From assembly GCA_016390365.1 (NCBI GenBank), contig GCA_016390365.1_3043.1: DNA of 64,000 bases; one strand, written 5' to 3'. A program made the position numbers and the translations under genes. How positions within the stretch are numbered: position 1 is the stretch's first letter; each line of letters begins with the position of its first letter. The notes beneath the pieces are model-generated. The model saw nothing but the letters and a program-made list of their open reading frames with translations. It made no database searches and was not told the DNA's origin. Source of the DNA: a phage. This document shows positions 35,032 through 36,255 of this stretch, one piece after another.

Positions 35032-35352
35032 ATGAAAACTCTGCTAGAACGTTATATTGAATGTTCAGACCGTTACATTGATGCATGTAATGGTGCAGTA
35101 TATATGGATTTGGACCGTGGGGTAGTATTAAATGATGAAGACCCTGCGAAAGCTTTAGATGACGCTGGTAAAGCTTTACGAAAAGAAGCAAAAGCCCGCG
35201 GACTTGATATGTATCAGCTTAAAAATCACATGATAAAATTTATTTCATCTAATGTTCAGAGCAAATCGATGAATCAATCAACAGCTGAATTATATAAAGG
35301 GCGGCGTGAGCATAATATTCGTATTCTTGAAGTTTTCTTAGGAATTAAATGA
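35032..35352 (+). CDS. hypothetical protein
   Basis: 106-aa ORF. Confidence 0.5.
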
Positions 35353-36255
35353 TGAAAAAGATTATTTTGACTATTGGTTGTCCTGGTTCAGGTAAGAGTA
35401 CTTGGGCTCGTGAATTTATTGCTAAAAATCCTGGATTTTATAATATCAATCGTGATGATTATCGTCAATCCATCATGGGTCATGAAGAACGCGACGAGTA
35501 TAAGTATACCAAAAAGAAAGAAGGTATCGTAACTGGTATGCAGTTTGATACAGCTAAAAATATTCTGTACGGTGGCGATTCTGTTAAGGGAGTAATCATT
35601 TCAGATACTAACCTGAATCCTGAACGTCGCCTGGCATGGGAAACTTTTGCCAAAGAATACGGCTGGAAAGTTGAATATAAAGTGTTTGATGTTCCTTGGA
35701 CTGAATTGGTTAAACGTAACTCAAAACGCGGAACTAAAGCAGTACCAATTGATATTTTACGCTCAATGTATAAAAGAATGCGAGAGTATCTCGGTCTTCC
35801 GGTATATAAAGGGACTCCTGGTAAACCAAAAGCAGTTATTTTTGATGTTGATGGCACATTAGCAAAAATGAATGGTCGCGGTCCTTGACCTTGAAAAATG
35901 TGATACCGATGTTATCAATCCTATGATTGTTGAACTAGCTAAGATGTACGATAAGCAAGGATATTACATCGTAGTCGTTTCAGGCCGTGAAAGTGGAACC
36001 GAAGAAGACCCAACGAAATATTATCGTATGACCCGTAAATGGGTTGAGGATATTGCTGGCGTTCCATTAGTTATGCAATGTCAACGCGAACAAGGTGATA
36101 CCCGTAAAGATGATGTAGTCAAAGAAGAAATTTTCTGGAAACACATCGCACCGCATTTTGATGTGAAATTAGCTATTGATGACCGAACTCAAGTAGTTGA
36201 AATGTGGCGTCGTATCGGTGTTGAATGCTGGCAAGTTGCTTCGGGAGATTTTTAA
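35349..36255 (+). pseudogene. pseT: polynucleotide 5'-kinase/3'-phosphatase, interrupted by a frameshift
   Basis: ORF 35349..35888 carries P-loop GCPGSGKST and DVDGT motif and stops at TGA 35886; rest of phosphatase domain continues in +1 frame (35872..36255, [13 protein letters not shown]...). Confidence 0.7.

Follow-up and report, generated by a model that had tools for sequence, protein, structure and literature searches.

A probably genuine two-base deletion disrupts the polynucleotide kinase/phosphatase gene pseT in a T4-like phage

Polynucleotide kinase/phosphatase (Pnkp) of phage T4, the product of pseT, has its kinase domain at aa 1-147 and a phosphatase domain of the DxDxT type at aa 148-301. 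In the latter, Asp165 serves as covalent nucleophile and Asp167 as general acid, and the contacts to phosphate and Mg2+ require Ser211, Lys258, and Asp278 (PMC3592404). T4 pseT mutants grow on laboratory strains and are restricted on prr+ hosts, where the phage-encoded Stp peptide activates the host anticodon nuclease PrrC (PMC3014915). A T4 delta-pseT knockout is viable and can be plated as a control; in phage Bas37, the PseT orthologue ranks with those genes whose effects on fitness were most significant when clinical isolates were compared with K-12 (bioRxiv 10.1101/2025.11.20.689424). The kinase domain of T4 Pnk is also represented by an engineered 181-residue chain that has been crystallized (PDB 1LY1). 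This fragment, Pnk(1-181), reportedly retains kinase activity, a result that is attributed to Wang and Shuman 2001 and to Wang, Lima and Shuman 2002.

The DNA analyzed here, a stretch of 64,000 nucleotides referred to as the window, is of Tequatrovirus (T4-like) type. According to the annotations of its relatives, it carries rIIB, tail-fibre genes, td, nrdA/B, rnlA, pseT, cd, and the genes for DNA ligase, alt, baseplate and capsid proteins. The gene order of T4 is preserved around pseT, i.e. rnlA, alc, two spanin genes, two small ORFs, pseT, small ORFs, and cd. The pseT reading frame, in contrast to that of T4, is broken. The following features were distinguished at the locus:

35349..35888, + strand: 5′ part of pseT (ORF1), 179 codons, with the P-loop GCPGSGKS and the motif DVDGT, ending at the stop codon TGA 35886-35888
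35887..36255, + strand: 3′ part of pseT (homologous part of ORF2) in the +1 frame, from GAC 35887 to TAA 36253-36255, corresponding to T4 Asp180-Phe301
35885..35887, + strand: deletion junction seen in alignments, at which two bases of the Tyr179 codon TAT are absent with respect to every relative
35872..35874, + strand: candidate restart codon ATG in the +1 frame, 14 nt 5′ of the stop codon, found by direct reading

The initial annotation had assigned the locus to pseT, encoding the T4 type of Pnkp, and had described a stop at TGA 35886..35888 with continuation in the +1 frame to 36255. Direct reading and translation reproduced both the stop and the continuation, and the identity of the gene was borne out by Pfam matches and by alignment with T4 Pnk. 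ORF1 matched AAA_33 (E 5.7e-23) and positions 1-20 of the HAD_PNKP profile, and ORF2 matched positions 21-143 of the same profile (E 1.8e-46), so the two ORFs form adjoining parts of one domain. Residues 2-179 of ORF1 aligned without gaps to residues 1-178 of T4 Pnk in the structures 1LTQ and 1LY1 (E about 1e-118; 1.9e-117 for 1LTQ), and the kinase residues Lys15, Ser16, Asp35, Arg38, and Arg126 (T4 numbering) were identical. ORF1 thus comprises the whole 5′-kinase domain (T4 aa 1-147) and extends ~31 residues into the phosphatase domain, covering DxDxT (as DVDGT) and Arg176; it ends with NGRGP, the proline being T4 Pro178, before TGA 35886-35888. In translation, the +1-frame part carries Ser211, Arg213, Asp254, Lys258, and Asp277/278; the Asp165/Asp167 motif is absent from it.

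In its sequence, a bifunctional Pnkp of the T4 type is marked by an N-terminal P-loop kinase domain with the motif GxxGxGKS, by a C-terminal HAD/DxDxT acylphosphatase domain that has Asp165, Asp167, Ser211, Lys258, and Asp278 on one polypeptide, and by a single ORF of ~300 codons. ORF1 has the kinase domain with its P-loop motif. The phosphatase residues, by contrast, are divided, with DVDGT in ORF1 and the rest out of frame, and the single ORF is interrupted by a 2-nt deletion. The locus therefore resembles T4 Pnkp (PDB 1LTQ) in its N-terminal 178 residues from end to end, in the P-loop and DVDGT motifs, and in the phosphatase residues downstream; it differs in that the frame is broken in the Tyr179 codon and no single polypeptide of 301/302 aa is encoded. 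Judged by its sequence, the locus is a pseT orthologue by descent, with 99.6% nucleotide identity to the pseT of phage teqhal, yet a disrupted allele.

Teqhal was the closest relative by pseT. Over the 909 nt of the gene, the window differed from it by two substitutions and one 2-nt gap, which was the sole difference in length. At the gap, the teqhal sequence GGT CCT TAT GAC CTT corresponds to GGT CCT TGA CCT T in the window; the placement of the gap is equivalent, since either TA was lost between 35885 and 35886 or AT between 35886 and 35887. The junction is spanned by CCTTGACC in the deletion form and by CCTTATGACC in the intact form. The lost codon is that of Tyr179 (T4 numbering), in agreement with the initial annotation, which had placed the loss of a single codon between GP and DLEKC. 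Of the two causes that it had offered, a 2-nt deletion or a 1-nt insertion, the alignment with teqhal upheld the deletion and excluded the insertion. The pseT span measured 909 nt in all 60 of the 60 best phage matches and 907 nt in the window. Identity to the intact teqhal protein of 302 aa was 98.9% over the N-terminal 179 aa and 100% over the C-terminal 122 aa, which shows that the split is not a chance pattern of ORFs.

In frame 0, the sequence after the deletion reads CCT-TGA-CCT-TGA, with two UGA stops one codon apart. Readthrough of the first UGA could therefore not rescue the protein. The deletion also converts an ancestral quasi-repeat, CCTTATGA followed by CCTTGA, into a perfect tandem repeat of CCTTGA (35883-35894). 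Deletions of this repeat-creating class make up at most ~1% of the possible 2-nt deletions in pseT, a figure that is an upper bound and refers to a post hoc observation.

The junction was searched for in several collections. An 84-nt query across it matched 183 phage records, none of them at 99% identity or above, and the best match reached 97.7% owing to the 2-nt gap. Junction patterns, both exact and wobble-degenerate, gave no matches in IMG/VR, GTDB genomes, or JGI metagenomes, and neither split product, with either start codon, was recorded in a protein index of 153 billion genes. Intact genes, on the other hand, were found throughout. In IMG/VR, 14 of 14 loci encoding pseT relatives matched as one full-length segment. 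Among phage records matching Pnk, 2028 of 2030 covered at least 80% of the protein, and each of 60 evenly sampled rows was in a single frame. The N-terminal fragment, compared with 5.8 billion proteins, retrieved almost only full-length relatives (~293-311 aa); of the 120 cluster representatives listed, only about a dozen were not full length, and these shorter ones were either partial proteins at contig ends or truncated differently. On the sequences searched, the two-base lesion is private to the window genome. The genome as a whole had only moderately close matches: three long segments of the window that were searched showed at most ~97% identity (about 96-97%) to any deposited phage genome.

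The reading that we favor, and hold to be probable, is that of a genuine mutation, i.e. a 2-bp deletion that is private to this phage, very recent in evolutionary terms, and located in the Tyr179 codon of a Tequatrovirus pseT. Perfect identity of the downstream 122 codons to those of teqhal implies that the mutation would be very recent, and the combination of a clean assembly with a site outside any homopolymer favors a genuine mutation over an assembly error. Such a deletion probably arose by replication slippage or misalignment at the quasi-repeat formed by CCTTATGA and CCTTGA; growth of the phage on a permissive host would then have allowed its neutral fixation.

The main alternative is an artefact of sequencing, consensus calling, or assembly. 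In this case the real pseT would be intact, with 302 codons, and the shortened form would be an error of the deposited sequence or a minority variant called as the consensus. We regard this as unlikely. In its favor, the lesion is a singleton that was seen in no other sequence searched, the downstream frame is free of any decay, as it would also look after an artefact, and a disruption is unusual a priori in a gene that is intact in essentially all relatives. The quality of the surrounding sequence speaks against an artefact. About 62 kb of the window were scanned against SHFML-11, teqhal, and G4498 for frame changes, nucleotide indels, and premature stops (61-64 kb had no reference). Over the ~62 kb scanned, no annotated gene other than pseT showed a frame change that is left uncompensated, and no premature stops were detected in other real genes, which points to a very low error rate. 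Moreover, the context CCTTATGACC is neither a homopolymer nor a long simple repeat, and a clean loss of 2 nt is atypical of platform errors. Comparable frameshift alleles recurred in two independent runs of another phage (see below), indicating that such alleles are biologically real.

The remaining flags of these scans comprised (i) the introns of td and nrdB, (ii) intergenic indels, (iii) paired compensating gaps in divergent stretches, and (iv) antisense or alternative-frame ORFs. A generally poor quality of the assembly was considered and rejected, as pseT was the only real gene flagged. Separately, single-base indels with respect to SHFML-11 (39501, 39597) were noted in the window at 39500-39720, where they change the frame of a small ORF region. 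Because this stretch is unannotated in relatives, it probably has no coding function or holds a variable small ORF.

Disrupted pseT alleles were also detected in two other phages. In a distantly related T4-like phage with 52% protein identity (P0111; Logan ERR4622800_2846, positions 1690-1700 of the locus, and ERR4622798_8142), pseT was split by a 1-nt deletion, TTT to TT. This deletion lies in the same aromatic codon as that of the window, after R-S-P, and occurred in the two runs ERR4622798 and ERR4622800; the closest intact relative of this lineage has CCATTTGACCTTGA. In a Tequatrovirus contig (P0047; ERR10009602_457, locus positions 1870-1880), an A4 run at codon ~125 has lost 1 nt, which changes TCAAAACGC to TCAAACGC and results in ORFs of 170 aa and 129 aa. 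Together, these two cases show that pseT is indeed found in disrupted form among sequenced phage populations.

The shared codon raises the idea that the aromatic codon after Pro178 is a recurrent break point yielding a kinase-only Pnk, either as a mutational hotspot or through selection for shedding of the 3′-phosphatase. We consider this idea very unlikely. A hotspot may stem from the conserved quasi-repeat ...T(A/T)TGACCTTGA. As to selection, it is conceivable that shedding the 3′-phosphatase is of benefit in that RegB/RNase E-dependent mRNA turnover would be kept while 2′,3′-cyclic phosphates would no longer be removed. The break in the same codon in P0111 and in the window could reflect a local hotspot adjacent to the conserved TGACCTTGA or coincidence; as there are so few cases, the agreement is suggestive only.

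Still less probable is a split but functional enzyme, in which the 179-aa N-terminal fragment and a re-initiated C-terminal fragment of 127 aa would associate non-covalently and rebuild the phosphatase. The only candidate restart codon for the 127-aa fragment is ATG 35872. Its position 14 nt 5′ of the stop makes termination-reinitiation conceivable, and the two pieces jointly hold all catalytic residues. However, this ATG is not preceded by a Shine-Dalgarno (SD) sequence, the break falls inside the HAD core, where it separates the DxDxT strand from the rest (between profile positions 20 and 21) with loss of the conserved aromatic residue, and the organization occurs in no relative. We know of no precedent for a non-covalent two-piece Pnk.

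Finally, we examined recoding. Programmed +1 frameshifting is described for prfB, encoding release factor RF2, at the site CUU-UGA-C, and UGA before C is a weak termination context. A +1 ribosomal shift at CCU-UGA-C in the window, whether programmed in a prfB-like manner or fortuitous, would yield exactly GRGP-DLEKC and thus a Pnk lacking only Tyr179. The locus shares with prfB the weak stop, UGA followed by C (35886-35889), placed so that a +1 shift there would bring the ribosome back into frame. It differs in the P-site codon, which is CCU and not CUU, and in having neither an SD-like stimulator nor conservation. Re-pairing of tRNA-Pro from CCU to CUU would be poor, with a mismatch or G:U at the middle position. 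By direct reading, no SD-like stimulator (AGGGGG or GGAGG) was found upstream of the stop, and in particular none of the AGGGGG type 3 nt upstream, the context being AAUGGUCGCGGU-CCU-UGA-C. Folding of the 101 nt that surround and follow the stop was no better than that of shuffled sequences (z = +0.91). The configuration is not conserved among homologues, every relative having an unshifted gene, and the aromatic residue that such a product would lack is Tyr or Phe in all but one of the 114 listed DxDGT homologues, the exception being the frameshifted P0111. The P0111 allele, split at the same codon, would require the opposite shift (−1), and this need for opposite frame corrections in the two alleles argues against a recoding signal. 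Given the missing SD-like stimulator, the lack of downstream structure, and the doubled stop, programmed recoding of the window pseT is unsupported, and a +1 shift of either kind is the least credible of the readings considered, with hardly any probability assigned to it. Transcriptional slippage was likewise rejected, because the nearest runs of A comprise no more than 5 bases and slippage by −1 at the upstream one would give AAA-TGA. The initial annotation had ranked an inactivating mutation or a sequencing error above recoding; with a unique lesion and recoding signals absent, our analysis agrees with this order.

The genes for the Stp peptide and for both RNA ligases were found intact in the window:

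3567..3647, + strand: stp, an intact peptide of 26 aa, found by six-frame search
32475..33599, + strand: rnlA, RNA ligase 1 (374 aa), intact, the partner of Pnk in tRNA repair
59682..60686, + strand: rnlB, RNA ligase 2 (334 aa), intact, matching 'RNA ligase 2' of teqhal in position and length

The Stp sequence of the window is presumably the same as that of T4. RnlA matched the Pfam families RNA_lig_T4_1 and T4_Rnl1_C, and proteins identical to it are encoded by other phages; in the contigs concerned, the nrdB intron was absent and pseT was intact, which marks them as belonging to different phages.

The thymidylate synthase gene td (24482-26354) is interrupted by an insert of ~1015 nt (25031-26045) carrying an I-TevI-like GIY-YIG ORF of 245 aa (25161-25898); like its T4 counterpart, the insert is a group I intron. 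Likewise, nrdB (29700-31984) contains an insert of ~1094 nt (30390-31483), an intron with a full-length HNH-type ORF of 269 aa (I-TevIII-like, 30536-31345), which several close relatives (teqhal, ACG-C40) do not have. A search of the whole window against Rfam at gathering thresholds gave no match, including no intron model at td. In addition, a free-standing ORF of 243 aa resembling GIY-YIG homing endonucleases, with an N-terminal half related to I-TevI, was found at 26612-27343 on the − strand, between the td region and nrdA and opposite in orientation to its neighbors.

The 179-aa product lacks everything from residue 179 on and is accordingly predicted to be unable to act as a phosphatase. 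As it is close in extent to T4 Pnk(1-181), it would most likely be a kinase-only, 3′-phosphatase-null Pnk: it corresponds to T4 residues 1-178 and is 3 residues shorter than the crystallized chain in 1LY1. The latter is an engineered fragment, whereas the window product would be a natural one whose kinase activity is predicted. In its effect, the product is most likely similar to that of the T4 pseT1 allele, which is phosphatase-minus and kinase-plus. Both pseT1 and the pseT deletion are cases of 3′-phosphatase loss in a T-even phage, as predicted for the window pseT. Here, by contrast, the allele is a frameshift truncation, natural or derived from a stock, instead of a point mutation or the loss of the entire gene, and it is located in a different Tequatrovirus.

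With stp, rnlA, and rnlB intact, growth on laboratory hosts and restriction by anticodon nucleases of the PrrC type are predicted. Plating should thus be normal on ordinary laboratory E. coli, with restriction on hosts that are prr+, i.e. carry PrrC.

For annotation, the locus is best described as a disrupted pseT, either as a pseudogene or as two fragments, and not as a pair of new genes or a case of recoding. Beyond annotation its importance is small, as it concerns a disrupted allele of a thoroughly characterized gene and involves no new mechanism. If the deletion is real, however, the window phage carries a natural 3′-phosphatase-null and probably kinase-only allele of pseT next to an intact stp and both intact RNA ligases. 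Its predicted sensitivity to PrrC would then be relevant to host-range work or to therapy on clinical E. coli, given that, in a related phage, the orthologue of pseT ranks with the genes whose fitness effects on clinical isolates are most significant.
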